From assembly GCA_965230965.1 (NCBI GenBank), contig OZ246401.1, forward strand, positions 666,937 to 730,936: a stretch of 64,000 bases of DNA. Reading direction: 5' to 3'. A program made the translations under genes and the position numbers. The stretch comes from an uncultured Gammaproteobacteria bacterium. GTDB taxonomy: Bacteria > Patescibacteriota > Microgenomatia > UBA1406 > HO2-37-13b. Position 1 is the first letter of the stretch. Each line of letters opens with the position of its first letter. The notes below the pieces were generated by a model that worked only from the letters and a program-made list of their open reading frames with translations, did no database searches and had not been told where the DNA came from. This document shows positions 30,323-57,444 of this stretch, one piece after another.

Positions 30323-30679
30323 ATGGACTCAATAAAAGACGTTTTAAAGACATTTAATCCCACATCAGACCGCTATATATCAAGAGAATATCAATCATTT
30401 GGCGTGCATCTCGCCGAGAAACTCGGCGACGAACAACATAAGAGTTTGTATATTAAATTATCCAAACAAGTGCCGCGCCCAATGTTGTTAAAAGCGTTGC
30501 AGTTTGTGGTCGATTCGGGCGCACGTAGGAAAGGAGCGCTTTTTATGTGGAAGCTCAAGGAATTAAATGCATTTCCAGAAAAAATCAGCTCAACAAAGAA
30601 GAAAAAGGCACGATCCTCAACAAGACCTGGTCTTACTGTTCCCGACGTAGTTCAGGGTTCAATTCTGGAGCAAGATTAA
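30323..30679 (+). CDS. hypothetical protein
   Basis: ORF with a TATACT box (30307-30312) 10 nt upstream of the ATG at 30323 (MDSIKDVLK). The Lys-rich C-terminal tail overlaps the convergent gene and contains a copy of the 28-nt motif. Confidence 0.45.
   Translation: MDSIKDVLKTFNPTSDRYISREYQSFGVHLAEKLGDEQHKSLYIKLSKQVPRPMLLKALQFVVDSGARRKGALFMWKLKELNAFPEKISSTKKKKARSSTRPGLTVPDVVQGSILEQD
30607..30634 (+). repeat. copy of the conserved ~28-nt motif at a convergent gene junction
   Basis: ggcacgatcctcaacaagacctggtctt, located where the 3' ends of 30323..30679 (+) and 30633..32756 (-) overlap. Confidence 0.55.
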
Positions 30680-32756
30680 GTCTACAACCCTCACCTTTGC
30701 CGAAGTTAGCCTGCGTAAAGACGAGGTCAAATCCATTGATAATACCATCGCCATTTATATCAGAGCTATTTTGATCGGTCGGTCCAATCTCTTCTGCATA
30801 TTTTGTAGCTACAACAGAGAAATCGTTTGCATTACAGCAAGAATCTTTATTAACATCACATGCGTCAATTTCAGTTACCCCTTGCCCGGTTATGCTTCCT
30901 GCTTCTGAGGCTACGATACGATAAATGACGTTCTGGCGGAGTGGGGTGGTTACCTCATTTGGACAATTCACAGGTGTTGAACTACCTTCGAATGTAGCTC
31001 GGCACTTAACGCTGTAATCATTAATACCTTGTGGCAAGACCAAATTTGTCTCAACTGTGCCTCGTTGTCTTGGCTGGATCGAGGTATTAACAAGTTCAGA
31101 TGTGCATTGTGTTTTTCCTGGACCATAACAGGTGATTGTTGTAATACTGGTCACCGCTTTTGAGGAACCATTGTAGAAGGAAATACTTGTGTAAAAACCA
31201 GCATTTGATGTGTCTGGCGTTGGTGTTGGTGAAAATCTAGGATTTGGTGTTGCTGTTGCGCGTGGGGTTAAGCTTGGTGTAGGTGGAATTGTGGTTGGTG
31301 TTGGTGACCAGATTGGTGTTGCTGTAGGTGCGGCATTTTCACAGCTTACAGCACCAGAGCTACGTACGTTTGCCTCATTTTCTGTTGTGGGATATTTTGA
31401 TTTATCAAAGGTACACACAATCACCTGACCAGCAGGGAGTGTAATTGCATTTTCTACTTCAAAGAAATTTTGAACCAGTTCTGGTGTATCAACAGGCGCA
31501 TTGACCTCACAAATTTTATCATTTTCGTCAAATGTGCCATTACAGCGACCTAACAGCCAATAGAGTTTTTCCTCAGTTGTGCCATTGTTGTGATAGGTGA
31601 CTTTAATATTGTTGCCCGCGGCGCTTGAACTACATTGTCCGCGATTACCTTCGCTATCAGAGCCTTGTTTGTTATTTGTGTCGATTGCATGTGTACACGG
31701 ATCGAGCAAAGATCGTGCTTCGCCATCCTCTTTTCCAAGTCGCAATTCATACGTTGTGACATTGGCGGTAGGGAGTTGCAACTTAAATGTTGTTGTTTTA
31801 CCTGAAGCGCCGAGATTAATACCACATACAAATGCACCAAAATCTACATAAGAAGGCGAACAATTTGTATTGTTTATTGGTTCAATACGCACTCCCGTAT
31901 TATCTGCCTTTCCATCATCACGCTTGTAGTCGTAGAAAAGCACAAGAGCTTTTGCACCTCCTGGTGTATCATTTATTGTTAAATTCACCGTCTTATTTAT
32001 TGTCGTACCTGTACCTTTGCGTGTAATATCTGTGTTTGATGTTTTGTTTCCCTGTGCGCCACACGATTCCCAGTTAATGTCTCCTTGTTCGGTAAAATCA
32101 CAGGTCATGGCGGTTGCTTGGAACTCTGTAAAGTTAGATTTCCATGTTCCCGCAAGCTGCAGATTGACCGTTATGTCGCCTGGCTGAGCTGGAGTAGGTG
32201 ATTGATTCGGATTGTTTGTTGGTTGTGGATCGTCAGGACAGAAGTAGCTGCGACTTATTTTTCCTACCTCTGCTTGTAGCTGCCATGGTGGGCCAGCTGT
32301 GTCAACACGAATATCAAGATCGCCAGCTGGTAAACATTCAGCGCCTTCTGGCAGGCGGGTTGCCGCTGGCATATTTATAGGCGCATTAAACAAGAGCATT
32401 GGATTGCCATCTTTGCAGCGAGCAGTAGCAGGGTTTGAAACTGTCTTTTGTACACTGGCGCCAATAGGAATTTCTGGCTGCAAAAGATCGTCATGATATA
32501 TCGATACTTTCCATTTTCCATTTAATGGTGGGTTGTTGGTAAAACAAAGTCCGCCAGTTAACATATAATCCCAGCGATTATGCGGAGCCAAGCTGGTAAA
32601 TTCGATAGTTACATCTTGATTTGCCACCTCGGTTAACTCAGGTGGGACTGCAGCTTCGGTTGTTCTTTGTTGAAGCTGGGGGCTTGTTACCAAGGAGACA
32701 CCAATGATAAGTCCTAGTGTCATTATTGCTAAAACGGCTAATGATAGTGTTTTCAT
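30633..32756 (-). CDS. large secreted surface protein with a C-terminal dockerin-like module
   Basis: Signal/TM anchor. Pro/Thr linker APTATPIWSPTPTTIPPTPSLTPRATATPNPRFSPTPTPD. C-terminal double Ca-loop CDVNKDSCCNANDFSVVATKY / DINGDGIINGFDLVFTQANFG. Confidence 0.75.
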   Translation of the reverse strand: MKTLSLAVLAIMTLGLIIGVSLVTSPQLQQRTTEAAVPPELTEVANQDVTIEFTSLAPHNRWDYMLTGGLCFTNNPPLNGKWKVSIYHDDLLQPEIPIGASVQKTVSNPATARCKDGNPMLLFNAPINMPAATRLPEGAECLPAGDLDIRVDTAGPPWQLQAEVGKISRSYFCPDDPQPTNNPNQSPTPAQPGDITVNLQLAGTWKSNFTEFQATAMTCDFTEQGDINWESCGAQGNKTSNTDITRKGTGTTINKTVNLTINDTPGGAKALVLFYDYKRDDGKADNTGVRIEPINNTNCSPSYVDFGAFVCGINLGASGKTTTFKLQLPTANVTTYELRLGKEDGEARSLLDPCTHAIDTNNKQGSDSEGNRGQCSSSAAGNNIKVTYHNNGTTEEKLYWLLGRCNGTFDENDKICEVNAPVDTPELVQNFFEVENAITLPAGQVIVCTFDKSKYPTTENEANVRSSGAVSCENAAPTATPIWSPTPTTIPPTPSLTPRATATPNPRFSPTPTPDTSNAGFYTSISFYNGSSKAVTSITTITCYGPGKTQCTSELVNTSIQPRQRGTVETNLVLPQGINDYSVKCRATFEGSSTPVNCPNEVTTPLRQNVIYRIVASEAGSITGQGVTEIDACDVNKDSCCNANDFSVVATKYAEEIGPTDQNSSDINGDGIINGFDLVFTQANFGKGEGCRLNLAPELNPELRREQ

Positions 32757-32759
32757 TGT

Positions 32760-33392
32760 TTAGTCGAAAATATGTAGTGTTGCTGGCTCGGTTACTTGTA
32801 AAAGATTTTTTCCATCCTGTGCTGCGATTGTGCGGTCCTTATCGAATTGGATGACCGTCTCTTGTGTCTTCTTTAAGGCACGCGCCTTAAATTTAAGAAC
32901 GATGCCCTCTTTTTTGAACGTATTTTTGCCTGGGTCGTATGCGGCTGAAAAAGTTATGGTGCCTGGTTTTTGTTCATTAAGTATGACTCGATCAAAGACA
33001 TCGCCATTTTCAACGGTGCTGACAGCTATATACGTAGGATCATAGGTCAAAACTGTATCAACAGCATATGCGGGTGCGCCACTCATAGTCACAAAGAAGG
33101 TAATCTCTTCATTTGGCTTCATAAATTTACTTTGAGGCAAGAGGGAAAGGCGCACGCCATCTGTTTTTTCGAGGGCAGCTCCTGGGGCTGCTTCATGTAG
33201 CACATTGCGCTTAAACTTTGGTGAAAAAATAACGCCAATAAGAATGCTCAAGATAAAGAGAATAATAAGTTGAATTGCGAGCAAGAACTTAACTTGAGGG
33301 CTGAGCGTAAAAAAATCCTTTACATCTTTACGCACAGTAGTAGCGACGGTGTCCATGTATCCATTATAGAGAGATTGTGAATTGTTTGTCAA
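32760..33392 (-). CDS. membrane-anchored cohesin-like domain protein
   Basis: N-terminal TM (FLLAIQLIILFILSILIGVIF), then a ~140-aa beta-sandwich pattern: VRLSLLPQS..EEITFFVTMSGAPAYAVDTVLTYDPTYIAVSTVENGDVFDRV..GTITFSAAY..IVLKFKARALK. Confidence 0.65.
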   Translation of the reverse strand: MTNNSQSLYNGYMDTVATTVRKDVKDFFTLSPQVKFLLAIQLIILFILSILIGVIFSPKFKRNVLHEAAPGAALEKTDGVRLSLLPQSKFMKPNEEITFFVTMSGAPAYAVDTVLTYDPTYIAVSTVENGDVFDRVILNEQKPGTITFSAAYDPGKNTFKKEGIVLKFKARALKKTQETVIQFDKDRTIAAQDGKNLLQVTEPATLHIFD

Positions 33393-36300
33393 TTAAAGCT
33401 CAGTTCCAAATGAGTTCATGAAGATGGAGAGGTCGAGCGCATTCACTGCGCCATCTTGATTCACATCTGTGGTCGACGCGCCTTCGGCGCCATATTCATC
33501 GTAGAGGTACTGAAGGTCGATTGTATTAATGACACCATCCTGGTTTATATCGAGATCAATAGATACTGGTTGTATTGGTCGAGCTCCATTACTCGGACAG
33601 AGTGAACCAAGACTCGATTTATCAATCACGCCAGATCTTACAGAAATATTGTAAATATAACATGTATCTCCTGTGACATTAATTTCCGCGGGCGTACACA
33701 GCTTGGTGTTTGACCCATCAAATACTACTGAACATTGAACAGAATGTTTTCCTTTTGGAACATCGTTATATAGCACGTTGTGTTCATATGTGTTTGTGCC
33801 GTGGAGTGATCCAAGTGTGAACTCACTCCCTGTGAAAAGGAAGGGAACGGGGCCTGAAAGTACTGGTTTTAGGGTAAAGGCGGTCAATCTAAATGCTTCA
33901 ATTTTATATTTTATAGTTACACGATATTTAGGTTGAACAACTTTTGTTGGTTCAGGCTGTTGAATCTTACTACAGTACCCAGTACCAGTGCGAGATTTTT
34001 GTGCGCTACAGTTATCAACACCCATCTCACGGCACTGCTTTTCAGCTTCGCCTTTGCTAGGGAAAGCAGGGGAACGCCCATTAATGCCATATTCTTTCTT
34101 CTCATTATCACATGTACCAATATTGCCCTTAATCTTACAGCAGAATCCAGATGTACCAATTTTGCTGTTAGGTGATTTCACAACCTCAACCAGATTAGAT
34201 CCATATGTGCCAGTACATCTTGCAGTTGCCTCATCTTTATTTCCAGGAACTGCTTGATCTCTATTAATACCTACACCTCGTAAACCATCTTGAGCTGAAC
34301 AACTACCTATATCAGCAGTATGTACACCGCAACAATGGCGAGATCCATCTCGTTTGCCAGTATTTTTATCGAGTGGGTGGTTGTATGACATAAATCCATT
34401 CGCACGGACACATTTATTTGCGGAAGCAGGAAATGGTCCGTAGGTTCCAACTGTACATTCGTAAGGGTCGGTTTGGCCATTACCACCGCCACCCGTCCCA
34501 CCGCCAGGACCACCAGACGTTCCAAACGAGCAACAGTATCCTCCATCAGATGCATTAACAGGTCCATTACTTCCAGGCCATACACTTTGACATACGCCAC
34601 GATCACTTTCTGAACTAACTTTTATGAATGATTCACCAACGCGGCCTTCTTGGCCGTACGAATTTGCTGGGCAGACACCTTGGCCACCGCCACCTGGATT
34701 GCCACCACCTGGGTTACCAGGATTTCCTGGATTACCGCCACCGCCTGGGCCTTCGCCACCTGGTGGTTCTGTGCCTGGAGGGCAACACCATAGATCGGTG
34801 CCGCTACAAGGTTGATCACTTGGTGGGGTTTTTGGTACATATCCACGACTTCTACAAAAGCTTTCTGGAGCACACCACTGTGGACATACACCACCGCCAC
34901 TACCTGGATCACCAGGTTCTTTAGGTTCTTCCGGATCGTCAGAATCATCGCGTGCAACGCCAGTAAAGTCGAGTGAGACAGGGTTGCTCATACAGGCACC
35001 ATCTTTATCTAAGAATGAATAAAGATACGCAGTATACTCATGGCCCTCATCATAATAATCCCTACGAACTACATTTACTTGATGTGGTGCCTCACCTGGA
35101 TTACGATCGTTTGTCTTAACGCCAGTATCTTCATCTTTCATTCCTCTTCGTGAAGCTACAATTTCTCCTGTTTCCTTATCTTTCACAATAATCCAGTATC
35201 GATCAGAACCACGCTTAAATGCTGGACAATTACCAGCAACATCCCATTCAAGATTCGCTGTTCGTTCTTTTATTTCTTTAATACGGAAGTTTCGAGGCTT
35301 ACAGCCCTCGTTTTGTGTAGCAGAAACATTGTTGTCGTCGCGCAGCGCGCATGATACAGAGCCAATGGGTGCACCACCAACAGGAGGCTCAGCAGCTGGA
35401 GGTTGTGGGGTAGGGGTTGGAGGAATCTTTTCCAATACCCAGCCATATTCCAGATTTGCATTACATGCAATACGAAGGTTTTCAAAGATTTTTGGATTGC
35501 GAAGCTTACTCATGTCTGTCTCGCTCCATGTATCTGTATAACCAGGGCACGCAGGCACACTTGAATTTTTACTTGTACATTCTTGTTTGACCACACGATA
35601 GTCGTCAGCATAGAGTTTTACTGCAGCCAAAGCATCGCGGCCCCAAGTTTTAGTTTCTCTGAAATCACCCAAGTCAGTGAGGTGGAAGTCAACACGTCCG
35701 GGATTGCTGCCAAGGTTATTGAAGGTTAGTGTTTCAATTGGCTTATCACCACGATCGAAAAGTTGTTTATTGTTGACCGTTCCATATATGCCGGGTTTAT
35801 TATCGAGTGCAGTAAGGATATTGCCACTTGTGTCTTTTACATATGAAACAGCGTCAAACGCACAGCCGCAGGTGCGATTTGCATAGACTTCAAAGTCGCG
35901 CTTGTCGCCAGGTTTTACGCGCAATTTTTCTCCTTGTTCACGCTCGGAATCAAAATAGGTAGCATCGTTATCAAAAAAACCAGCAGCACGACTTAAGAAG
36001 TATGTTTTAGAAGGATCAAGTAACTTATTGTTTTCATCTGTGCTTATTCTGTACTTATACATCCAGGTTCCATCATCATTTGTGTCGTCAAGCCAAATAC
36101 CATGATCACTCGGTCCAGGGGTGAATGGCAGCGCCACAACTTTTCCGCCATTTAATTCATCACAGGTTTCGCCTGTGCAAAAATCTACAGCTACTCGCGA
36201 AGGTTTCTTACATGCAAATACAGAAACCCGCCCAGAAATTGTTCCATCTGGTGTTGGAGTAGGGGTTAGCGTTGGTGTGACTGGAGCGTCACTTGGTGCA

Positions 36301-36974
36301 GGTGTTTCGCTCGGGCCGGGTGTTTCACTTGGTTCGGTAGGGTCTGTCGTTGGCCCGGTACCTGGCTCCAATGTTGGAGTGGGGCTCTCGGTAGGGCCAC
36401 ATACATCTTTGATTTGGTCAAGAGCAATCTTTGCAAATGGGGTTCCTGAGAACCATGTTCCTCTGTAATGTAGATATACTTCTGGACAATAACTTGCACT
36501 TAGTCGGCGTGGTGTTGTTGCAATGACAGAGAAGCGATGTGGTTGTTTTTGATTTTTATCAAGCATCTTTCCTATACCTGCAGCCCGATCCACATATTCA
36601 CAGCTTGCGGGGAAGCTTCCATTGCCGGCCACATATAGACGGCCACCATCGATATAGCTTCCATCATTTTCACCATCTAGTGCCTTGCCACGATTATCGG
36701 TAGCCCAAAGCGTCCATTCTTCTTTTCCTCCGCTTTGAAGATGGCGTGAGTAACAAATCTGACCGCTGATTTCTACATGAGTATCATCAATGCGACGTAC
36801 ATCAAGAGTATTTTCTTGCAACATGACACCTGTTGAGTTTAGGGCTGCCTGTGAAGAGGTGCCAAGATTGTTTTGAGTAATACCTATGACTGTTGCAGCA
36901 AGTGCAATAACGCTGATACCAGCAACAAGCATACCTGCAATTGAGCCTCGATTATTGAGTTTCATTGACATCAA
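33393..36974 (-). CDS. giant secreted surface protein (FN3-like module, Gly-rich spacers, Cys-rich CC-motif repeats) with a C-terminal dockerin-like module
   Basis: Signal/TM anchor, PT linker, FN3-like PRNFRIKEIKERTANLEWDV...YTAYLYSF, GGEGPGGGGNPGNPGNPGGGNPGGGGQG, repeated ...CC motifs, and C-terminal DINQDGVINTIDLQYLYDEYG / DVNQDGAVNALDLSIFMNSFG. Confidence 0.75.
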   Translation of the reverse strand: MMSMKLNNRGSIAGMLVAGISVIALAATVIGITQNNLGTSSQAALNSTGVMLQENTLDVRRIDDTHVEISGQICYSRHLQSGGKEEWTLWATDNRGKALDGENDGSYIDGGRLYVAGNGSFPASCEYVDRAAGIGKMLDKNQKQPHRFSVIATTPRRLSASYCPEVYLHYRGTWFSGTPFAKIALDQIKDVCGPTESPTPTLEPGTGPTTDPTEPSETPGPSETPAPSDAPVTPTLTPTPTPDGTISGRVSVFACKKPSRVAVDFCTGETCDELNGGKVVALPFTPGPSDHGIWLDDTNDDGTWMYKYRISTDENNKLLDPSKTYFLSRAAGFFDNDATYFDSEREQGEKLRVKPGDKRDFEVYANRTCGCAFDAVSYVKDTSGNILTALDNKPGIYGTVNNKQLFDRGDKPIETLTFNNLGSNPGRVDFHLTDLGDFRETKTWGRDALAAVKLYADDYRVVKQECTSKNSSVPACPGYTDTWSETDMSKLRNPKIFENLRIACNANLEYGWVLEKIPPTPTPQPPAAEPPVGGAPIGSVSCALRDDNNVSATQNEGCKPRNFRIKEIKERTANLEWDVAGNCPAFKRGSDRYWIIVKDKETGEIVASRRGMKDEDTGVKTNDRNPGEAPHQVNVVRRDYYDEGHEYTAYLYSFLDKDGACMSNPVSLDFTGVARDDSDDPEEPKEPGDPGSGGGVCPQWCAPESFCRSRGYVPKTPPSDQPCSGTDLWCCPPGTEPPGGEGPGGGGNPGNPGNPGGGNPGGGGQGVCPANSYGQEGRVGESFIKVSSESDRGVCQSVWPGSNGPVNASDGGYCCSFGTSGGPGGGTGGGGNGQTDPYECTVGTYGPFPASANKCVRANGFMSYNHPLDKNTGKRDGSRHCCGVHTADIGSCSAQDGLRGVGINRDQAVPGNKDEATARCTGTYGSNLVEVVKSPNSKIGTSGFCCKIKGNIGTCDNEKKEYGINGRSPAFPSKGEAEKQCREMGVDNCSAQKSRTGTGYCSKIQQPEPTKVVQPKYRVTIKYKIEAFRLTAFTLKPVLSGPVPFLFTGSEFTLGSLHGTNTYEHNVLYNDVPKGKHSVQCSVVFDGSNTKLCTPAEINVTGDTCYIYNISVRSGVIDKSSLGSLCPSNGARPIQPVSIDLDINQDGVINTIDLQYLYDEYGAEGASTTDVNQDGAVNALDLSIFMNSFGTEL

Positions 36975-38682
36975 CGCCTTGCAAACTTGTAACGAGAGAT
37001 AAATCTAATGCATCTACTGACTTGTCTTTATTAATATCACATGTCAGTTTGTCAGATTTCTGACCCCATTCATCAATACAGGCAACAAGGTCGGCTGTGT
37101 TAATAAAACCATCATTGTTTATGTCGACATCTTCAGGTTTTGCAACGCGCATGACTTCAGCATTTGAGCCTGTTGCATTTTTACGAATATACCAATCATA
37201 AGAAACATCAACACCACATGCAACGCGGAAACCAAGGAAATTGGGTTCATCAACGAGTGTTGATTCATTTTCGAGGGTACCTCCAGGACACGCATGGACT
37301 TGACTTTGTGGAGTTGTCTGGCAGCGCTGCTTTACAACGCTATAGCCTGGCGCATAGAGACGAACATGTGCCATGCCATCTATACCGTATGGCGTCCATG
37401 GACCAACTTTATTGCTGTAACTTATATCGTGAAGACTTTCGAGCACGTCGAGCACCCCATTAGTAAATGGACTTACTGGTTTGTCGCCGCGAGTAATTAT
37501 CTGCATGTCATTTGCACTGCCATAGGTAAGATCTTTACCGGGAACGAGTGCCTCATCAAGAGCAGTTGTTATTTCACCAGTATCTGCATCACGCACATGT
37601 GCTCGAGCGTGGAATACGCACGCGCATGTTTGGGCTGCTGCATTGACGGTTAAATCGCGCGAGCCTGGGACAGACACTTCTTTTTTATCTTCCTTTGTCG
37701 ATGCGAATGCCTCGATTGTTGTATCCTTGAAGCGTTTTATGCGAGCATTCGCGTTATAGATGGCATACGTCTTACTCTTGTCTAAGGCATTTCCAGCCTT
37801 ATCTTTTATGATGCGATACTTATATATGAATGTGCGCTCATTGGTATCGTCGTCGAGCCAGACTGACTGATCTTGCTCAGACGGTGCAAGACTGATATCT
37901 GCACAGCTTGTTCCGCTAGGATCATCGCAATAACTCAAGGTGACATTTTCAGGTTGGGCACATGAGAAAACTGTTATGCGACCTTCGATTGCATCAGGTG
38001 TAGGAGTTGGCGTTGCAGTTAGGATAGGTGTAGATGTGGGCGCTGCTGGGGTTGTGGTAGCGCGTGGTCGAAATGGAATACGAGTTGGTGCAGGCTTATT
38101 TGGTGTTGGTGTATTGCCACCGCCACCTGGTGCTGTTGTTACAGTTGGGTCAGGGTCTTTGATCACGCCATCGGGACACAAAAAGCTTCGTTCAATATAT
38201 GCCACATCCTCTTGTGGAATAGGGCGCCAAGGGCCTTTTGTAGTAACCTTTACTTTAATACGTGGGCAACTTTCAACCCAGCGCTCCTGAGGAGGCACGT
38301 TGAAAGGTGCGTTTGCTACAAGTCGTCGTAATCTTCCTGAGCCACAGCGCGCCGTGGAGGGTGTTGTAATGAGTTGATTAACTGATGCGCCAATGACTTC
38401 TTCTTTCTTAATCGCTGGATTTACTTTGTCTTTAAGTTCCATGGTAAGCTGAACGGATGCACTTCCGGCTGCTGAAGGAGGAGAGGCGGTAAAACAGAAA
38501 TCAGAATTTAAAATATAGTCCCACTGTTTTGATGGATTTATGGCAGAAATATTAAATCCAATGTCCGGATTTCTGATGTAAGTTACTTCTGGCTTGGACT
38601 GTCCGTAAGCCACAGAACCTAAACTTAGGAGACTAATAAAAAGTGTCAATATAAAAATATGAGCAGTCTTTACGACGTACAT
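36952..38682 (-). CDS. secreted surface protein with a C-terminal dockerin-like module
   Basis: Signal peptide, PT linker TTTPAAPTSTPILTATPTPTPD, and C-terminal DINNDGFINTADLVACIDEWG / CDINKDKSVDALDLSLVTSLQG. Shares modules with 30633..32756 and 33393..36974. Confidence 0.75.
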   Translation of the reverse strand: MYVVKTAHIFILTLFISLLSLGSVAYGQSKPEVTYIRNPDIGFNISAINPSKQWDYILNSDFCFTASPPSAAGSASVQLTMELKDKVNPAIKKEEVIGASVNQLITTPSTARCGSGRLRRLVANAPFNVPPQERWVESCPRIKVKVTTKGPWRPIPQEDVAYIERSFLCPDGVIKDPDPTVTTAPGGGGNTPTPNKPAPTRIPFRPRATTTPAAPTSTPILTATPTPTPDAIEGRITVFSCAQPENVTLSYCDDPSGTSCADISLAPSEQDQSVWLDDDTNERTFIYKYRIIKDKAGNALDKSKTYAIYNANARIKRFKDTTIEAFASTKEDKKEVSVPGSRDLTVNAAAQTCACVFHARAHVRDADTGEITTALDEALVPGKDLTYGSANDMQIITRGDKPVSPFTNGVLDVLESLHDISYSNKVGPWTPYGIDGMAHVRLYAPGYSVVKQRCQTTPQSQVHACPGGTLENESTLVDEPNFLGFRVACGVDVSYDWYIRKNATGSNAEVMRVAKPEDVDINNDGFINTADLVACIDEWGQKSDKLTCDINKDKSVDALDLSLVTSLQGVDVNETQ

Positions 38683-38688
38683 ACGATC

Positions 38689-38717
38689 ATTCTAGTTAAG
38701 AATAGAGGAGATTACAA
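38689..38717 (-). promoter_or_regulatory. internal promoter TTGTAA-17-TAGAAT, with the -10 box 6 nt upstream of the ATG at 38682
   Basis: Minus strand reads cTTGTAAtctcctctattcttaacTAGAATgatcgtATG. The -35 box overlaps the stop of the upstream gene. Confidence 0.45.
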
Positions 38718-39506
38718 GAGAGAAATCTGACTGGTGAGCAAGGTGTAATCGAGCGCATTTACTTTATTGTCATTATTTAGGTCGCCCATAAGCCCCGGAC
38801 CTTGTTCGCCATACGTATCTAAGACGATAAATAGATCAAATGTATTGCAGGCGTTGTCATGATTGAGATCACATGTAGTTGTCAACGCCGAATCTGTACG
38901 TGCGGCTGGGTCGGCTTGTTTGCCAGCTCGTCTTTCAACGACCCAGCCTGCCTTTAATGTCATATTACAATCCATTGATATATTTTTTACTGTGTCCAAA
39001 TCAATAGTCTCAGTCACATCATCTTGAAGCGTTGCATTATTGCAGAGGTGTGGGTGGGTGGGTGAGGAGCATGTGTTAATTTCCTGCTTCACTATAGCAA
39101 ATAGATCGCTTTGGTAATTTAATTTTAACGATGTGCTTTCACCCTTTCGATACACATCAATACTTCTTGGTAAAGAACTAAATGTAAGTGCATCAGCAGT
39201 ATGTAAGTATTCCATACGCGGCAATTCATTAAAATACAAAGGCTGCGCATTTGGTCTCACGCCATCAATGACGTTCCACGCTAGGATGTTAATATCTGGA
39301 TATTTTTCAATTGAAAGTGGAATTTCTTGGCCGACCTCATCCTTTTCATATACATATATTTCAGCATTGATAGGGCAATACACAGGTTTGTATTCTTGTG
39401 CACTTGAAAAAAGAGCAAAGGGGCGATCGGTTTGTAGGGTAAGTACGCCGATGATAATCCCAAAGGTGAGAAAAAGAATACTCGAAACAAACGTTATTGC
39501 CTTCAT
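38712..39506 (-). CDS. secreted protein with a C-terminal dockerin-like module
   Basis: Signal/TM anchor. C-terminal CDLNHDNACNTFDLFIVLDTYG / DLNNDNKVNALDYTLLTSQ. Confidence 0.7.
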   Translation of the reverse strand: MKAITFVSSILFLTFGIIIGVLTLQTDRPFALFSSAQEYKPVYCPINAEIYVYEKDEVGQEIPLSIEKYPDINILAWNVIDGVRPNAQPLYFNELPRMEYLHTADALTFSSLPRSIDVYRKGESTSLKLNYQSDLFAIVKQEINTCSSPTHPHLCNNATLQDDVTETIDLDTVKNISMDCNMTLKAGWVVERRAGKQADPAARTDSALTTTCDLNHDNACNTFDLFIVLDTYGEQGPGLMGDLNNDNKVNALDYTLLTSQISLL

Positions 39507-42055
39507 TGTGATTCAAGCTCTGGACTCACTACTGTACCCAGATCACCAATCATGAGGGAGACATCGAGCGAGTTGATGACACCATCGTCATTAAGATCTC
39601 CAGGAAGTTCTGTGCCTTGCTGGAAGTAAGCGTCATAGAGATTGAAGAGGTCGACAGTATTAATAATGCCATCGTCATTCATATCTTTTGCCCGCATAAA
39701 CGCTGTGTGCAATGCTTCTGTTTGAGCACAAGAGTTAAGACTTTGTTGGACACGGCCGAAGATCTCGCTTATTGACACATTTGCTGCGGTAGAGAATGCC
39801 CATGTGTCATCTGAGGCGACGACTTTAATAACTCTGAGAAGTTCGGCATTTACAAGTTCACCTGGAACAGGGTTGTTTGCGGCATTAGGATCACCATAGC
39901 CGATACCAATGACTGTTGGTGGTACGTTGCCTGTTGCAGCAGTATTCATCGCTTTGAGCTTATCAGCCTCAGTCTTGATTTCAGCCTCGTAGCCCCCAGC
40001 TCGTGGATTGCCTGGGTCACTGTTTGGAAGACCATCGGATAAGAATACAACAACCACTCTTCGAGATTTATCTGTACGGAAGTTGGTGAGAAGATTCATG
40101 GTTTCACGAAGTCCACATTCAATACAAGTCCCTTCTTCGTATGTAAGACTGTTTGTTGCATCATTCTTTACGGTATCTATATTGTTAGTGAGTGGGGTAA
40201 CAATACGTGTATTTCTACGGCTACTAAACTGGATGAGCGCAGCTCGATGATCGCCACCACTATTTTTGATATTTGTAAGGAAGTCTTGAAGTTCTTTCAT
40301 TGCGGCATCCTTCTTAAGTTCGCCACCACGATCGCGTGTTTTGATCATTGACGTTGATGTATCCATGACGAATATGTAGTCAAAGTCTGCATTACATTTT
40401 TGAACAGTCCAACCGTAAACAATATTTTGGCCACATCCGACGGTAAGGCCTGTGACTGTATCGCGAGGATCGCGCTTGGTCAGATCAACACTATTGTCAA
40501 TTCTATTTGCCTGGAATGCTGGAAGATTACATGCTCCAACAGTGTTTCCCTTTATATTGTTTTTACAAAACTTGATTTCATTACCTTCAGGCACAATGCG
40601 ATAATCTGGTCGTTTAAGTGTAAGGCGTATTGATGCGTCCTCCATATTTGCGTAGCGCTCATTTGGATAGGTGAAAGTGGGTGGTATAAACATCCCGTTA
40701 CCCGATGCAACTGGATTCACTCCAGCTGGAACAGGCTGCGTGAGATCTGCTCTGAAGTATGAGAGTTGTGAGCCGAGTATGCCGCCACCGTAATAAGGAT
40801 AGTTTTTAATAATGTCGGCGGCCTCAATTGGATTACCAGTGAATAGATTAAAGCGAGAAGCTGGTCCTTGACCATAACGACCACCAGCGAGTTGCTTATT
40901 ATTTATAGTGCCAAAGTTTGTAAGCTCAGCCGTCGAAAGAGCACGAGCCATAAAATTACCTCTCGCGTCACGTACGCATTGTCCCTGAGCATTAAATTGT
41001 GTACATTCTTGCACATAAACAAGTGCGCTAAAGCTGCATGATGTTGCAGTAATTGGCGTTGGTGTTACGCTTGGCGTGCCAGACAGCGGTGTACTTGGCG
41101 TCGCTGTCGGTGGGCATGTTGGGCCTCCACACGATGGCGTCGGAGTAATGCTCGGTGGTGGGCAAGTTGGGCCTCCACACGATGGTGTTGGTGTAGGTGA
41201 TTTCAATATAATCGTCACAAATATATTTGTAGGTGTTGGACTTTTTGTAGGTGTGGGGGTTGGTGACTTTACTACTATAGTTATAAGCCAATTTGTAGGC
41301 GTAGGTGTTACGGATGGTGTGCCTGATAAAGGTCCTGTCGGCGTTACGCTAGGTGTGCCCGAGAGCGAACCTGTTGGCGTAACTGTTGTTTCAGGGCCAC
41401 AGCCCTTTTTGCCTTTAGCAATTTGTGAATAACGTCGAGTGACACCAGCTGTTTTTGCATCAAATTCAAAATAGAATAACGCGTCTTCACCACCTGTTAA
41501 CCAGCTTGGACGATCATACACAAAGTATTTATGATCGCTTGGTCCTTGACGAACACTCAAGAGAATTTGACCTTTTTTAATATCATACCCTGTTGCTTTG
41601 CGTATATTTGCTTTTTGAGCATCGGTATAATCGATGCGTGGATCCCAGTTAACCGAAATGCCATATGCACGATTACTACACGCGCCAGTAATGGATTTGC
41701 CGATTGGTGTGCCATTTGGATTTCCACGACCGGTAACATCAACACCTAAATCAAGTTTTTGTGAGCCATCTAAAGAGCGAATCTCAAGTTTCTGTATGAG
41801 AGGGTCTGAATTACAGGTAAATTCAGCTGCACATATCATTCCTTGTGAACCATCAAACCATCGACCACCGGTATAACCAAGATCAATAGGTGTGGGGGCA
41901 TCAACAGCGAATGGGGTAGTAGATATGGGTCGTGATGCTTGATTAATCTGTGTTCCTATAACGATGCCTGCTGTAATAACCAGCATCGATACAATAGTTA
42001 ATAACGAGGCGACTTCACCTCGTTGGTGTCGATTTTTTCTCTTAAATATGTTCAT
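39503..42055 (-). CDS. vWA-domain surface protein with a TadE/G-like N-terminal hydrophobic segment and a C-terminal dockerin-like module
   Basis: N-terminus KRKNRHQRGEVASLLTIVSMLVITAGIVIG. vWA MIDAS DYIFVMDTSTSM ... GTCIECGL ... VVVFLSDGLPN. Repetitive PT/Cys linker. C-terminal DMNDDGIINTVDLFNLYDAYF / DLNDDGVINSLDVSLMIGDLG. Confidence 0.8.
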   Translation of the reverse strand: MNIFKRKNRHQRGEVASLLTIVSMLVITAGIVIGTQINQASRPISTTPFAVDAPTPIDLGYTGGRWFDGSQGMICAAEFTCNSDPLIQKLEIRSLDGSQKLDLGVDVTGRGNPNGTPIGKSITGACSNRAYGISVNWDPRIDYTDAQKANIRKATGYDIKKGQILLSVRQGPSDHKYFVYDRPSWLTGGEDALFYFEFDAKTAGVTRRYSQIAKGKKGCGPETTVTPTGSLSGTPSVTPTGPLSGTPSVTPTPTNWLITIVVKSPTPTPTKSPTPTNIFVTIILKSPTPTPSCGGPTCPPPSITPTPSCGGPTCPPTATPSTPLSGTPSVTPTPITATSCSFSALVYVQECTQFNAQGQCVRDARGNFMARALSTAELTNFGTINNKQLAGGRYGQGPASRFNLFTGNPIEAADIIKNYPYYGGGILGSQLSYFRADLTQPVPAGVNPVASGNGMFIPPTFTYPNERYANMEDASIRLTLKRPDYRIVPEGNEIKFCKNNIKGNTVGACNLPAFQANRIDNSVDLTKRDPRDTVTGLTVGCGQNIVYGWTVQKCNADFDYIFVMDTSTSMIKTRDRGGELKKDAAMKELQDFLTNIKNSGGDHRAALIQFSSRRNTRIVTPLTNNIDTVKNDATNSLTYEEGTCIECGLRETMNLLTNFRTDKSRRVVVVFLSDGLPNSDPGNPRAGGYEAEIKTEADKLKAMNTAATGNVPPTVIGIGYGDPNAANNPVPGELVNAELLRVIKVVASDDTWAFSTAANVSISEIFGRVQQSLNSCAQTEALHTAFMRAKDMNDDGIINTVDLFNLYDAYFQQGTELPGDLNDDGVINSLDVSLMIGDLGTVVSPELESQ

Positions 42056-42076
42056 TTGTCTTTAATCCTTTATATA

Positions 42077-42622
42077 TTATCGAACGGTAATAGTAACTGG
42101 TTCAGCTGTACCAAGTGTATTGGTGCCAGTATGAGCAGTAATAGTTAGATCTTTATTAAAATCTATTGTAGCCGTTCCAGAATCCATTGCGGTTACGGTA
42201 AAGGTGAAAAGAGTGCCTGCTTTTAGATCTGTTGGATTATTGGGATCCACAGCAGAGGAGACGATAAGCTGATTATCTTTTATTTCACTACGTAGAATGT
42301 CAGGAAACACGGTGCCATTGACAATGTCTGAGGCCTTCAGAAGCTTTGCATCAAATGTCAAAACAACGTCAGCTGCTTGTGAAGGGGCACCTGTGAGTTC
42401 AACAGCAACTTGCGTACTTTCACCCTTGTTCAAACTTGTGACTTGAGGCTTTAATACAAGCTGTGTGGTACCTAATTGATTCTCTGTTTTGGAACCAGTC
42501 ATTCCAGATTTGCCTTTTTGGGCAAAGAGAAGCCCCATAATCAAACTAACAGCAAAGACAAAAAAGATGATGCCGATAAGTGCAATATTTTTATTAGGTT
42601 GAAGGGTTTTAGATTGATCCAT
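42077..42622 (-). CDS. membrane-anchored cohesin-like domain protein
   Basis: TM helix [21 protein letters not shown], then [77 protein letters not shown] at 42622 (MDQ...) preferred because the ATG at 42631 lies inside the -10 box and the paralogue starts MDN. Confidence 0.65.
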
Positions 42623-42629
42623 GAGAATC

Positions 42630-42659
42630 ATTGTACGGGTTATAAAAGTTGTTTGTCAA
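42630..42659 (-). promoter_or_regulatory. promoter TTGACA-18-TACAAT, with the -10 box 7 nt upstream of the ATG at 42622
   Basis: Minus strand reads cTTGACAaacaacttttataacccgTACAATgattctcATG. Confidence 0.5.
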
Positions 42660-42673
42660 GAGAAAATAAGAGG

Positions 42674-45600
42674 TTAATTGAAGACATCACCAATTACTTT
42701 TTGAGCAGTGTTATTTTCTTGTGGGACTACTTTGCCCATACTGTTGACGATGATTGATACGTCGAGTGAGTTGACGATTTGATCATTGTTCAAATCTTCT
42801 GGAACATCTTGACCTCGTGCAAAGTAATTATCGTAGATAAGGAAGAGGTCAATTGTATTAATAACACCGTCACCATTAATATCTTGTGAGCTGACGAAGT
42901 TTGCATACAAGGCATCCGAGCGAGCACAAGAGTTCAGGCTGACTTCAATGCTATTGTAAATTTCCTCAATACTGACCTCACTTGTTGTAGAGAAGGCGAG
43001 GTCGGGCGTGCTCGTGAAATGCTGAATAACACGAAGTATCTCGGCATCAGCATTCACGCCTGTTTTTGTTGGATCGCCAACGCCTATGCCATACACTGTT
43101 GTATTAGGTATGGCTTTTATTTCTGTTCCAAGTTTTATGATTACATCTTCAGAGCCTGGATTTGGATTTCCTTCAGGACAATTTGGCATACCGTCTGTTA
43201 AGAATACGACATGTGTTTTTCTCGCTGTACCATTTCTTTTCAATAAAGAGATGGTTTCACGCAAACCGTCTTCAATACAGGTGCCTGATTGATAGCGAAG
43301 CTTTGTATCAACAGCTCCGAGGACAGAATCAATATTGGTAGTAAGATCTTGTACTGTTGCTGTATTTGCTGTTGAACTAAATTGTACTAATGCTGCGCGG
43401 CTATCTTTTCCGTAAGTCTTGATGTTTGTTAAGAAGGTGCGCAATGCCTTCTTTGCTGCATCGATTTTCAGTTGTCCTGATGCATCTTTTCCTGTTGTCA
43501 TCGAGGACGAAGTATCAATGACAAATATATAATCGGCTGGCGCGGTATTACATTTCTGCAATGTCCAGCCGTAGACAATATTCTGACCGCATCCAACAGT
43601 TAGGCCATCGATGGTATCCCGTGGATCTCGTGAGGCAGGGTCAACAGTGTTATCAAAGCGTGAAGATTGGAATGATGCAAGATTACAAGCGCCTATCGCT
43701 GTACCCATAAGCGCATTATTACAGTAGGCAATTTCATTTCCATCTGGAACGACTCTATATTCTTTATTGCCAAAGTTAGCATACAGGCGTACACTTGCAT
43801 TTTCACGATTAAAGTATTGTTCGTTTGGATATTGATGCACAGGTGCAATAAGAATTGGATTCTTAGCACGTCCTTCTGGTGTTAAGTCGGCTGCTGAGCC
43901 TGGCTCTAAAGGATTTTTCCCTGCTGGGATAGGCACACTTGCCTGATAATCTAAGAATGACATTTCACTAAATTGGAGCGTACTAAGATAAGGGAAGCGT
44001 ACTTTAAGACCATCAAAAGCCCCTACAAAAGTATTAGTTTGATACTGGAATGGTGTTGCTGGGTTTGTACCATAGCGACCACCAGCAATCTGCTTATTGT
44101 TACTTGCGCCCCAACCATTAAGCACGTTTGCTTGAATAGCTTTTGCCTGAAAGCGGCCGTTCCCAGCACGCTTACATTGTCCAGTTGCATCAATCTCTAA
44201 ACACTCTTGGACATAGGCAAGTGCATCGAAGCTACATGCTTGTGGTGTACCAGTTGTCGTTGTTATCGTAGGTGGTGGGGGGGTTACTGTTTTTGCTGGT
44301 GTTATTGAGACTAATGGATTCGTTGGTGTTGGAGAAACCTTCACATTTGGACATGCAAGATCTGGACTTTCACAAGAACCTGGGTTTGCCTGACATCGCT
44401 GTGGTAGACATAGACAGTCAACATCACCATTTTGACAGATTGATAATACATTATTAGCCCCATCAGTATTTTTTGCGGTTGTTGGGAAAGTAGGTGGAAG
44501 AATATTGAACCCATCAACATTTAAACATAGCATACGTTTGCCTGTAGCTGGATCAACATCACATTTTGTAATAGGTGTACATCGTTGATAACACTGTGCG
44601 ACTGGTGGTGTTACGGATGGTGTGCCTGACAATGGTCCTGTTGGTGTTGGACTTACTAATGGCGTGACAGTCACAGGTACCGAAGGTGTTGGGCTTCCAC
44701 CTTGACCTGTTGTTGGTGTCGGTGTGACATTTGGGTTACAAAGGTCTTTTGCCTCATCTTCGCCCAATACATCACGTAAATTTATCTTGAATATATTATA
44801 TGTGTCCTTTGGCTTAGCTTTATCACCAGCTGTTATATTGTCGCGGAGGTGGATATAGACTTCACATGCTTCCTCGTCGAATTTTTGGTGGATTGTTGGA
44901 TCCTGCTTTGCTCGCTCAATTGCACTCTTTATACTTGCTTTTGCGGCTTGAATATTAAAGAGAAGAGGATTATCTGTTTTTCTGTAATCTGTTGCGTCAA
45001 CTTTTCCATTGGTAAACGTACAAACCTCATCACGAGCTCTCGCAACAAACAACTCATCAGTATTATTTGAAGCAGCTTTATCTTCTGCAGCTGCGATTTT
45101 ATAACGAAGGACATCGTTGATATCATTTTCTTCAATACCAACCTGACCCTTGTCATCATAAAACTTTCGAACTCCAAAGAGACTGATATAAACCTCGACG
45201 TCTTCTGTTGAGAGTCGACCATTGCCTGCAACTGAGCTTCGGTTAAGACAAAGTCCTCCGTATATTTGTAATGTCCGCTGATCTTTTGCTGTTACAGCGA
45301 CAATAAGTGGGTTTTGTTTTGACTGTTCTGTGCCTTGAAAGATTTGATTAAAAATTTGTTTTGCGCGTGCATCCGCGGTTTTAATGATGTCGCGTGTTAA
45401 AAGAGCAGGGTACATTCGTGTACGACAATACTTATCGCGCACTTGTTGGTTCTTATCACCACCAGGGAAACAAACCTGGTCATGTCTGTCAACACCTTCA
45501 GCTGGAATCGGGGATGTTGTTGTTGGGCCGGCAGCTTGTGGAGCGGGATTAATTGTTGCTGAATTTCTGTTGATCTGATATCCGACGAGAAGGCCAATGG

Positions 45601-45679
45601 AAAGAACAACCATTGACACAATGGTTAAAAGTGAGGCTACTTCACCTCGTTGTCTTTGCGAACGCTCAAAATATCTCAT
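42674..45679 (-). CDS. vWA-domain surface protein with a TadE/G-like N-terminal hydrophobic segment and a C-terminal dockerin-like module (paralogue of 39503..42055)
   Basis: N-terminus RSQRQRGEVASLLTIVSMVVLSIGLLVG. vWA DYIFVIDTSSSM ... GTCIEDGL ... HVVFLTDGMPN. C-terminal DINGDGVINTIDLFLIYDNYF / DLNNDQIVNSLDVSIIVNSMG. Confidence 0.8.
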   Translation of the reverse strand: MRYFERSQRQRGEVASLLTIVSMVVLSIGLLVGYQINRNSATINPAPQAAGPTTTSPIPAEGVDRHDQVCFPGGDKNQQVRDKYCRTRMYPALLTRDIIKTADARAKQIFNQIFQGTEQSKQNPLIVAVTAKDQRTLQIYGGLCLNRSSVAGNGRLSTEDVEVYISLFGVRKFYDDKGQVGIEENDINDVLRYKIAAAEDKAASNNTDELFVARARDEVCTFTNGKVDATDYRKTDNPLLFNIQAAKASIKSAIERAKQDPTIHQKFDEEACEVYIHLRDNITAGDKAKPKDTYNIFKINLRDVLGEDEAKDLCNPNVTPTPTTGQGGSPTPSVPVTVTPLVSPTPTGPLSGTPSVTPPVAQCYQRCTPITKCDVDPATGKRMLCLNVDGFNILPPTFPTTAKNTDGANNVLSICQNGDVDCLCLPQRCQANPGSCESPDLACPNVKVSPTPTNPLVSITPAKTVTPPPPTITTTTGTPQACSFDALAYVQECLEIDATGQCKRAGNGRFQAKAIQANVLNGWGASNNKQIAGGRYGTNPATPFQYQTNTFVGAFDGLKVRFPYLSTLQFSEMSFLDYQASVPIPAGKNPLEPGSAADLTPEGRAKNPILIAPVHQYPNEQYFNRENASVRLYANFGNKEYRVVPDGNEIAYCNNALMGTAIGACNLASFQSSRFDNTVDPASRDPRDTIDGLTVGCGQNIVYGWTLQKCNTAPADYIFVIDTSSSMTTGKDASGQLKIDAAKKALRTFLTNIKTYGKDSRAALVQFSSTANTATVQDLTTNIDSVLGAVDTKLRYQSGTCIEDGLRETISLLKRNGTARKTHVVFLTDGMPNCPEGNPNPGSEDVIIKLGTEIKAIPNTTVYGIGVGDPTKTGVNADAEILRVIQHFTSTPDLAFSTTSEVSIEEIYNSIEVSLNSCARSDALYANFVSSQDINGDGVINTIDLFLIYDNYFARGQDVPEDLNNDQIVNSLDVSIIVNSMGKVVPQENNTAQKVIGDVFN

Positions 45680-46251
45680 TATTTAACAGTAATAGTTACG
45701 GGTTCCGTCATACCTAACGTATTGACACCGTTTGTTGCTGTGATGGTAAGATCTTTATCAAAATTTAATGCCGCTGAACCAACACCCACACCTTTAAGCG
45801 TGAAGGAAAAAAGGGTTCCAGTTTTAACATCCGCTGGATTATTTGGATCTACAGCTGCAGAAACAATAACTTGGTTGTTAACTACCTCGCTACGAAGAAT
45901 GTCAGGAAAGACATCACCATTTGTAATGTCAGAGATAGCAACAAGTTTTGGATCAAATGTTATGACAACATCAACTGCTTGGGCACCTGTATCGTTCACA
46001 TTAACGCTAACTTTTGTTGCAGCTCCTTTTGCGATTGATGGTGATTCAGGAACAATGCTCAGCTGTGACATGCCTTTATTCGTATCCTTTATCACATCAC
46101 TTGGGGCTTTACGGAGCCCACTTTGACCAGCAAAATAAAGACCCGCACCAATGCTTAATGCAAAAATGACAGCAATAATCGAAAGGGCTTTGAGTTTTTT
46201 TTGAGGGTGAAGCGTATGAAATTCTTGAATATCATCCTGTACATTGTCCAT
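45679..46251 (-). CDS. membrane-anchored cohesin-like domain protein (paralogue of 42077..42622)
   Basis: TM helix ALSIIAVIFALSIGAGLYF, then [58 protein letters not shown]. The first base of its stop codon (45679) is also the A of the downstream gene's ATG. Confidence 0.65.
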   Translation of the reverse strand: MDNVQDDIQEFHTLHPQKKLKALSIIAVIFALSIGAGLYFAGQSGLRKAPSDVIKDTNKGMSQLSIVPESPSIAKGAATKVSVNVNDTGAQAVDVVITFDPKLVAISDITNGDVFPDILRSEVVNNQVIVSAAVDPNNPADVKTGTLFSFTLKGVGVGSAALNFDKDLTITATNGVNTLGMTEPVTITVK

Positions 46252-46257
46252 CCCATC

Positions 46258-46287
46258 ATTCTACGGCCTGGGAAAATGCTTTGTCAA
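46258..46287 (-). promoter_or_regulatory. promoter TTGACA-18-TAGAAT, with the -10 box 6 nt upstream of the ATG at 46251
   Basis: Minus strand reads cccTTGACAaagcattttcccaggccgTAGAATgatgggATG. Confidence 0.55.
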
Positions 46288-46320
46288 GGGTTTTTTTGAA
46301 CAATTTTACAAGTCCGGGGC

Positions 46321-47648: not shown

Positions 47649-47655
47649 ATGTAGG

Positions 47656-47684
47656 ATGGTACACAATAGGTAGAGAATTCACAA
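47656..47684 (-). promoter_or_regulatory. promoter TTGTGA-17-TACCAT, with the -10 box 7 nt upstream of the ATG at 47648
   Basis: Minus strand reads aTTGTGAattctctacctattgtgTACCATcctacatATG. It is back-to-back with the plus-strand promoter at 47691. Confidence 0.4.
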
Positions 47685-47690
47685 TAGTTC

Positions 47691-47719
47691 TTGACAATGA
47701 TTTTGAAACTATCTATAGT
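47691..47719 (+). promoter_or_regulatory. promoter TTGACA-17-TATAGT upstream of the glutaredoxin-like gene
   Basis: cTTGACAatgattttgaaactatcTATAGTtgattatagatATG (ATG at 47731). Confidence 0.55.
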
Positions 47720-47730
47720 TGATTATAGAT

Positions 47731-48420: not shown

Positions 48421-48427
48421 GCTACGC

Positions 48428-48457: not shown

Positions 48458-48463
48458 CAATGT

Positions 48464-57438: not shown

Positions 57439-57444
57439 CGAATA

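Follow-up and report, generated by a model that had tools for sequence, protein, structure and literature searches.

We describe here a duplicated pair of genes in a 64,000-nucleotide stretch of DNA (hereafter the window; bases 666,937-730,936 of the single 938-kb contig that makes up the genome) from a 0.94-Mb Microgenomates bacterium of the candidate phyla radiation (CPR). Each of two tandem units, A and B, starts with a gene for a small membrane-anchored cohesin protein (cohA or cohB), directly followed by a gene for a large protein that contains a von Willebrand factor A (vWA) domain and ends in a dockerin. The duplication of this two-gene unit had been proposed in an original prediction made from the sequence, and it is real, as judged from the open reading frames (ORFs), their order, the corresponding loci of genus-mates and the cohesin tree. 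The reading that we favour, and consider probable although well short of certain, is that the locus serves a non-cellulosomal cohesin-dockerin surface display, built from once-duplicated units whose couples are probably not orthogonal. The closest named relative of the host is "Microgenomates bacterium OLB23". A third cohesin gene, cohC, opens a further unit downstream. The features of the three units are as follows, in window positions.

46258..46287, minus strand: promoter of unit A, TTGACA-18-TAGAAT, an 11/12 match with its -10 box 6 nucleotides (nt) before the ATG
45679..46251, minus strand: cohA, 190 amino acids (aa), membrane-anchored cohesin (Pfam, AlphaFold2, Foldseek, family profile)
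42674..45679, minus strand: vWA-dockerin A, 1001 aa (Pfam VWA and Dockerin_1)
42722..42883, minus strand: dockerin module of protein A, with the two F-hand repeats DINGDGVINTIDL... and DLNNDQIVNSLDV... (Pfam; PDB 2y3n_B)
42630..42659, minus strand: promoter of unit B, TTGACA-18-TACAAT, an 11/12 match 7 nt before the ATG at 42622
42077..42622, minus strand: cohB, 181 aa, membrane-anchored cohesin paralogue (Pfam scan, alignment with cohA)
39503..42055, minus strand: vWA-dockerin B, 850 aa (Pfam VWA and Dockerin_1)
39527..39685, minus strand: dockerin module of protein B (Pfam)
33393..39506, minus strand: three more dockerin-tailed proteins of 264, 576 and 1193 aa, encoded behind vWA-dockerin B by genes that overlap or are separated by short distances
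33363..33392, minus strand: promoter of unit C, TTGACA-18-TATAAT, a perfect 12/12 match
32760..33356, minus strand: cohC, membrane-anchored cohesin above the Pfam cut-off
30633..32756, minus strand: 707-aa dockerin protein, operon mate of cohC (Pfam; the pair is kept in other genera)

Gene order and promoters

According to the ORF list, every gene from 47,666 down to 30,633 lies on the minus strand. The TAA stop codon of cohA overlaps the ATG of vWA-dockerin A by one base (TAATG, with nucleotide 45679 in common), cohB is separated from vWA-dockerin B by 21 nt that contain AAGGA, and 3 nt lie between cohC and the 707-aa gene; the spacings given in the original prediction were exact in all three cases. 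The one-base overlap between cohA and vWA-dockerin A, or else a 4-nt overlap or gap, is found in 8/8 related loci, and a tight or translational coupling of the two genes is supported by their arrangement.

The region 30,000-48,500 (18.5 kb) was scanned for the 12 positions of the sigma-70 consensus. Five sites matched at least 11 of them, and the three on the minus strand stand directly before cohA, cohB and cohC, with a distance of 6-7 nt from the -10 box to the ATG in every case. The separate promoters that had been predicted for units A and B (46287-46258 and 42659-42630) are thus both recovered. So is the start of cohB at 42622, since the alternative ATG at 42631 falls inside the -10 box. 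For the third pair, cohC followed after 3 nt by the dockerin gene stands as predicted, whereas the proposed start at 33392 does not: the TTG at this position is the -35 box of the 12/12 cohC promoter (33392-33363), and the gene therefore most likely starts at the ATG at 33356. Read from there, the protein begins with MDTVATTVRKDV..., which aligns with MDNVQDDIQEF of cohA.

The promoters of cohA and cohB are kept almost base for base in six genus-mates, and similar promoters precede the membrane-anchored cohesin gene in most loci of sister genera. This conservation, together with the short distance between -10 box and ATG, suggests that each of these cohesin genes opens a transcription unit that is probably leaderless. 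Unit A would consist of cohA and vWA-dockerin A, and unit C of cohC and the gene for the 707-aa protein. No strong promoter match was found among the 264-, 576- and 1193-aa dockerin genes downstream of vWA-dockerin B, which probably belong to the transcript of unit B together with cohB and vWA-dockerin B; the unit B promoter precedes four dockerin genes.

Cohesin anchors and their putative cargo

In the Pfam cohesin family (PF00963, cut-off 24.1 bits), cohC scores 38.4 bits, and cohB and cohA fall below the cut-off with 20.9 and 13.6 bits. For this reason the structure of cohA was modelled. With an alignment of 44 homologous sequences, AlphaFold2 gave a mean predicted local distance difference test score (pLDDT) of 85.7, rising to ~97 over aa 61-190, with aa 16-43 forming a long helix and aa 44-58 a disordered linker; a single-sequence model (pLDDT 60) was too poor and was set aside. 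The protein accordingly comprises a cytoplasmic N-terminus, a transmembrane (TM) helix at about aa 16-43, a linker of ~18 aa and a cohesin domain at aa 61-190. When the model was compared with the PDB using Foldseek, the top 50 matches were exclusively cohesins, each with probability 1.00, and the TM-scores normalized by target reached 0.7-0.78 against type I cohesins. The nearest structures include CaCohA2, OlpA (3ul4), OlpC (4dh2), ScaC (5lxv), ScaE (2zf9) and the CipA cohesins; the Archaeoglobus fulgidus cohesin 2xdh and the Clostridium perfringens NagJ cohesin 2jh2 are also matched, and many of the matched cohesins were solved in complex with dockerins. Model and matches together show the nine-stranded beta-sandwich (jelly-roll) fold of cohesins.

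Sequence comparisons point in the same direction. A profile of the TM-cohesin family matches PDB cohesin sequences with E values of 2.9e-5 to 2.5e-4 (2.9e-5 for 5lxv, 8e-5 for NagJ), many members of the family carry a precomputed PF00963 hit, and cohC is 32% identical to cohA. The small TM proteins, cohA and cohB among them as originally predicted, are real cohesins as far as the model and these homologies can tell. There is one cohesin per cohesin protein throughout the array, and calcium-dependent binding of dockerins by these domains may be expected. A juxtamembrane motif on the cytoplasmic side, D(I/V)x(D/E/Q)Fx(T/K/Q)LxPxxK, is found just ahead of the TM helix in the TM-cohesins (46200-46251 and 33300-33356, minus strand). 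Both cohA and cohC have it, as do those of sister genera, and cohB retains its second half only (TLQPNKN).

In protein A, an N-terminal hydrophobic anchor or signal with the motif QRGEVASLLTIVSM is followed by a paralogue-specific head, Pro/Thr linkers, a middle module shared by the two paralogues, the vWA domain (aa 706-915), the dockerin (aa 933-986) and a 15-aa tail, QENNTAQKVIGDVFN, that is exclusive to A. Protein B has the same N-terminal motif and a different head, and then likewise the shared middle module, vWA domain and dockerin. The Pfam models VWA and VWA_2 (PF00092 and PF13519) match across both proteins with E values of 1e-8 to 6e-16, the best being 5.8e-16 in A and 1.4e-11 in B. 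The DxSxS element of the metal-ion-dependent adhesion site (MIDAS) stands at the start of the vWA domain (DTSSS in A, DTSTS in B), and GTCIE with TDG in A and GTCIE with SDG in B are candidates for the further MIDAS Thr and Asp; the vWA domains are thus plausibly metal-binding.

Each of the two vWA proteins scores 28.7 bits with Dockerin_1 (PF00404, cut-off 22.9 bits). Both dockerins have two complete F-hand repeats with D/N at loop positions 1, 3, 5, 9 and 12, and dockerin A matches the PDB dockerin 2y3n_B over aa 932-985 (E 2e-4). By these sequence features they are real dockerins, and type-I-like. In addition, the dockerin is the slowest-evolving part of protein A, with a p-distance of 0.135 as compared with 0.388 in the vWA domain, which argues for a conserved partner. 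Given a real cohesin fold on one side and type-I-like dockerins on the other, a receptor-ligand relation between operon mates is the most economical reading and is well supported by context. Alternatively, the small TM proteins might be cohesin-like without being dockerin receptors, acting for example as export or assembly chaperones or as structural proteins of the envelope, in which case the neighbouring genes would be linked through some other function. This would be consistent with the scores of cohA and cohB under the Pfam cut-off, and with the fact that the most paralogue-specific, clade-conserved parts of the anchors are the cytoplasmic and TM segments. However, the top structural matches are all true cohesins, the dockerins are strongly constrained, and the cohesins and dockerins of this genome co-occur almost exclusively, within one 50-kb region; the window holds 6/6 Pfam cohesin hits and 13/15 dockerin hits of the whole genome. 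We give this alternative very little credence.

In the surface display that we favour, each unit would be read from a strong promoter as a probably leaderless messenger, the first gene of which would yield a small type-II membrane protein whose single cohesin stands off the membrane by ~20 residues; the next gene or genes would encode exported proteins ending in a type-I-like dockerin. After export, the calcium-loaded dockerin would plug into the cohesin translated from its own messenger, so that the middle module and vWA base would be held at the membrane and the Pro/Thr linkers would push the variable N-terminal head outward. Several observations weigh against this scheme. Two of the three anchors, cohA and cohB, lie under the Pfam cohesin cut-off. 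The short linker implies that the cohesin would lie beneath any cell wall. What points to co-transcription of the cohesin and vWA genes is their spacing and the promoter motifs only. Finally, the vWA proteins have a conserved hydrophobic N-terminus of their own and, if this is left uncleaved, they would already be anchored in the membrane, making tethering by a cohesin less obvious. The original prediction that each adhesin is tethered to its own membrane anchor rather than to a common scaffold therefore remains plausible, with the qualification that the adhesins carry this second potential anchor or signal.

The N-terminus in question starts with a basic stretch, after which QRGE(V/I)ASLLT(I/V)VSM occurs within a hydrophobic segment of ~20 residues. 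Both paralogues and all orthologues have this motif in nearly invariant form, and its strict version is restricted in this genome to the two vWA-dockerin proteins. There is no canonical signal-peptidase site close behind the hydrophobic segment; about 15 residues past it, both paralogues have a conserved P-(Q/F/L)-A-A motif at which processing could occur. Cleavage of the N-terminus would leave the link between dockerin and cohesin as the sole tether, with the variable head facing outward on its Pro/Thr linkers. Without cleavage, the protein would be held at both ends, or its dockerin would be free for a wall-anchored LPXTG cohesin or for another cell.

The latter case can be developed into a different arrangement, in which the vWA proteins are anchored by the uncleaved N-terminal TM segment and their distal dockerins plug into a wall-anchored LPXTG cohesin or into cohesins on a cell nearby, so that the envelope or the cells become cross-linked; the adjacent TM-cohesin would then not be the main partner. 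Indeed, the segment containing (R/K/H)GE(V/I)A(S/T) is more conserved (56% over the first 50 aa) than the heads and recurs on dockerin proteins of sister genera, two sortase-sorted cohesins and three sortases are present, and the Pro/Thr linkers could span a cell wall. However, it is with the TM-cohesin that coupling and conserved adjacency are seen, the LPXTG cohesin has a conserved downstream partner of its own and an orientation relative to the unit that differs from genus to genus, and the P-(Q/F/L)-A-A motif is a possible processing site. We therefore regard such cross-linking as rather improbable.

A TadG-like or type IV pilin-like N-terminus was considered and rejected, as the first 70 residues gave no match to Tad (PF13400), TadE (PF07811) or N_methyl (PF07963) at E <= 1, and the pilin signature G-x4-E is absent, the sequence reading G-EVASL with no Glu at +5. 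An NCBIfam search with the N-terminus of the vWA proteins gave no informative hit, and a PHROGs search returned nothing relevant. The broader motif (R/K/H)GE(V/I)A(S/T) followed by ~20 hydrophobic residues (window 45580-45645 and 41950-42020, minus strand) also heads several other dockerin proteins, in loci L012, L013, L014, L009 and L010, and a looser form, NRGSIAGML, heads the 1193-aa protein.

Duplication of the unit and specificity of the couples

Relatives were gathered by a search for homologous proteins, followed by retrieval of the encoding contigs, and by a genome search; a cohA-based search for related loci among genome contigs found none. The gene order cohA, vWA-dockerin, cohB, vWA-dockerin is repeated in every same-genus locus that reaches far enough (L001, L003, which is that of OLB23, L004, L006 and L008), and the partial same-genus loci L002, L005 and L007 show the same order. 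Such recurrence indicates that the arrangement is more than chance. cohA and cohB are 51% identical overall and 58% identical in the cohesin domain, somewhat less than the two-thirds that had been estimated by eye. Between the vWA proteins, identity is 47% in the last 560 residues, which comprise the middle module, vWA domain and dockerin, and 56% in the first 50; the intervening ~200-400 residues, that is the head and the Pro/Thr/Cys linkers, have no similarity apart from short Pro/Thr stretches.

A maximum-likelihood analysis of the TM-cohesins recovers the cohA clade and the cohB clade as sisters (support 95/99), the cohesins of three sister genera branching outside them and cohC-type proteins serving as the outgroup. 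The tree of the vWA proteins has long branches and a polytomy, with A and B weakly recovered as sisters (52/87). In topology tests, a grouping of A with the upstream vWA-dockerin copy of genera g3 and g10 was marginally rejected (p-AU, from the approximately unbiased test, 0.036), and a grouping of B with that copy was not (p 0.39). Taken together, the two trees suggest that the two-gene unit was most likely duplicated once, in tandem, in the ancestor of this genus, both copies having been retained since.

The wider distribution reveals both the constancy of the theme and its variations. The TM-cohesin family is present in 103/151 genomes sampled from the order, typically with one member per genome. 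The vWA-dockerin family is far more restricted, being found in 10/25 genomes of the family and forming 24 clusters among 5.8 billion proteins. A TM-cohesin gene directly followed by a vWA-dockerin gene occurs in genera g1, g3, g9 and g10 of the family, and in g9 there is one of each. The smallest loci, L015 and L016, contain two cohesin genes and no more, and a single gene with a dockerin-type motif comes after each of them: one pair is an LPXTG cohesin with a single-F-hand TM protein, the other a TM-cohesin with a vWA-dockerin. In g3 and g10, two vWA-dockerin genes lie around a single TM-cohesin gene, and the upstream one has no TM-cohesin in front of it. Hence, a cohesin gene followed by a dockerin gene appears to be the conserved theme, and a strict one-to-one ratio does not. 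Two of the vWA genes are split into two overlapping frames, namely vWA-dockerin B of OLB23 (L003, 14214-16506) and the upstream copy of g10 (L013, 3830-6009). These could be frameshifts that mark decay of one copy, or assembly errors.

The original prediction went further and suggested that the couples might be mutually specific. To compare them, positions were called discriminating when the residue sets of A and B do not overlap, using seven cohA and seven cohB orthologues, and seven vWA-A against five or six vWA-B orthologues. In the anchors, the discriminating fraction falls from 71% in the cytoplasmic N-terminus through 48% for the TM helix and 22% for the linker to 14% in the cohesin domain, the N-terminus and TM helix being well conserved inside each of the two clades. 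The dockerin-binding face of solved cohesins is formed by strands 3, 5, 6 and 8. The cohesin domain has 18 discriminating positions, several of them with a change of charge; eight lie on strands 1, 2, 4 and 7 and three on strands 3, 5, 6 and 8, as placed by DSSP of the model and textbook topology rather than by coordinates; 22 residues of the domain plus DLTITA are almost unchanged between A and B. In the dockerins, 44% of positions are invariant across all A and B sequences, and the canonical recognition positions 10/11 of both repeats agree between A and B (T-I/V and S-L). Fixed differences between A and B amount to 11% of the dockerin as compared with 5% of the vWA domain, and are concentrated at positions 15-22, within the second helix (SIIVNNMGK in A, SLMIGDLGT in B). 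The conserved 15-aa tail, QENNTAQKxIGDVFN, is found in A only.

These data can be held against the possibility that the units are orthogonal couples, cohA binding only dockerin A and cohB only dockerin B, so that each adhesin has a private anchor. It would fit this possibility that both pairs are kept in every genus-mate locus reaching that far, that fixed differences are about twice as frequent in the dockerins as in the vWA domains and clustered, that A alone has a conserved tail, and that charge changes are found among the 18 positions separating the cohesin domains. On the other hand, A and B differ less in the cohesin domain than in any other part of the anchor, the discriminating sites of this domain are mostly off the binding strands, dockerin positions 10/11 are shared, and g3 and g10 have two vWA-dockerins per TM-cohesin. 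A mirror-tree comparison, limited to six genomes, showed no excess for the cognate pairs (r of 0.62 and 0.67, as compared with 0.62 for either non-cognate pairing). Strict orthogonality is therefore unlikely in our view, although it deserves to be weighed seriously, and the mutual specificity that had been suggested as a possibility, which is also at odds with the four dockerin genes of unit B, is not supported. In other words, sequence evidence that operon mates bind is good, and that for each binding only its own mate is equivocal, leaning negative. With so little divergence in the cohesin domains, the two couples are probably cross-compatible, or only partly specific.

The favoured surface display would then imply that, after duplication, the copies diverged mainly in the adhesin head and in the cytoplasmic and TM segments of the anchor, and little in the cohesin domain. 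This pattern raises a further possibility, namely that the TM-cohesins are transmembrane couplers, each of which links its adhesin to a different cytoplasmic or membrane partner. It is suggested by the divergence of the cytoplasmic and TM parts, conserved as each of them is among orthologues, next to the slight divergence of the cohesin domain, and by the shared juxtamembrane motif. We consider such a role decidedly improbable; if it were true, the tasks of the partner might be to control position, to gate export, or to sense load and occupancy once the adhesin is bound to a host.

Known systems and neighbouring genes

Non-cellulosomal cohesin-dockerin pairs are already known, and modules of this kind were reportedly surveyed by Peer et al. 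in 2009. The array described here is not a cellulosome: it has no multi-cohesin scaffoldin, and its dockerin proteins have no Pfam hits to enzymes or carbohydrate-binding modules (CBMs) and no glycoside hydrolases. It resembles the anchoring cohesins of cellulosomal Firmicutes, such as OlpA, OlpC and SdbA of Clostridium thermocellum and ScaE with CttA in Ruminococcus flavefaciens, in that a single cohesin fixed to the envelope would capture the C-terminal dockerin of a secreted protein; R. flavefaciens CttA is itself a non-enzymatic adhesin held by a dockerin. In contrast to these systems, where S-layer homology (SLH) domains or sortase provide the attachment, the anchor here is an N-terminal TM helix with a ~20-aa stalk. 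The cargo is vWA adhesin-like instead of enzymatic, scaffoldins with several cohesins and CBMs are absent, and cohesin and dockerin genes form a putatively translationally coupled pair with a leaderless promoter of its own in a CPR host. The cohesins of the C. perfringens NagJ family and of A. fulgidus (2xdh) are also modules outside cellulose degradation, but there they are found on enzymes, toxins or soluble proteins and not in duplicated anchor-plus-adhesin operons. Finally, TadG-like proteins and Streptococcus sanguinis PilB, a pilin with a vWA module, have in common with our vWA proteins a hydrophobic N-terminus after a basic residue and Gly, in addition to the vWA domain; the C-terminal dockerin has no counterpart in them, and a Pfam match to Tad, TadE or N_methyl is lacking here.

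A search of the literature on cohesins and dockerins in CPR, Microgenomates and Patescibacteria found no description of such pairs, and a preprint on the Pam pilus mentions neither cohesin nor vWA. Several features set this locus apart: its cargo consists of vWA proteins, the duplication of the whole unit in tandem is specific to the genus, a promoter stands before each probably leaderless cohesin gene, and the paralogous anchors have diverged less in the binding domain than in the cytoplasmic and TM segments. CPR bacteria are believed to spend their lives attached to other cells, and little is understood of how their attachment proteins are mounted and varied. The locus may offer a compact and testable model for this question: the membrane cohesin would be the socket, and the vWA adhesin, encoded with it on one leaderless messenger, would carry the dockerin plug, a recent duplication having apparently exchanged the outward head and left the base of plug and socket in place. 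As a natural experiment, the paired copies may further show the pace at which two cohesin-dockerin couples drift apart in specificity once duplicated. If the couples turned out to be orthogonal, they would provide small new parts for the engineering of protein assemblies; if they cross-react, they would represent a shared docking platform for interchangeable adhesins.

In total, the island comprises seven cohesin-type genes, six of them with Pfam cohesin hits, and ten dockerin proteins. Upstream of cohA lies one more pair:

46854-47666, minus strand: LPETG (sortase-sorted) cohesin, first gene of the pair
46321-46857, minus strand: 178-aa TM protein with a C-terminal single F-hand (DINQDGCVLLNDL), second gene of the pair

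Three sortase genes are present in the genome, and the one inside the window is located at 6521-7237 on the minus strand (Pfam Sortase, E 8e-23). A second cohesin-dockerin island at 56860-62846 on the plus strand has the reverse gene order: dockerin proteins of 192, 273 and 601 aa are encoded first, and after them two cohesin-like proteins with a TM anchor (276 and 210 aa), an LPRTG cohesin and a 235-aa TM protein. In both islands (46321-47666, minus strand; 61486-62846, plus strand), the LPETG or LPRTG cohesin gene is followed by that of the small TM protein with a 4-nt overlap. The pair of LPXTG cohesin and single-F-hand protein is also seen in L012, L013, L015 and L016, and in L014 the cohesin is alone within the stretch fetched; its orientation relative to the TM-cohesin unit varies.

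Directly downstream of the array (27293-30274, minus strand) are genes for a 7TM_transglut membrane protein, a fusion of ATPgrasp_ST with a RimB/Zn-protease-like part, and a RimK-like ATP-grasp protein. This three-gene set recurs in L009, L010, L011, L015 and L016, and in the last two it comes immediately after the lone vWA-dockerin gene. The sole recognizable enzyme seen among the cargo is encoded in a sister genus (L010, 2019-4787), where a protein with a Pectate_lyase_4 domain has a C-terminal dockerin that was matched only by a custom-built hidden Markov model. Elsewhere in the window, a 1680-aa RHS-repeat protein (15703-20745, plus strand) contains a dockerin-like module near its N-terminus, at aa 69-118, which scores 19 bits in Pfam and is thus under the cut-off, but exceeds it if the hits of the frame are summed. 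The RHS toxin cage may thus be another protein that docks on a cohesin.

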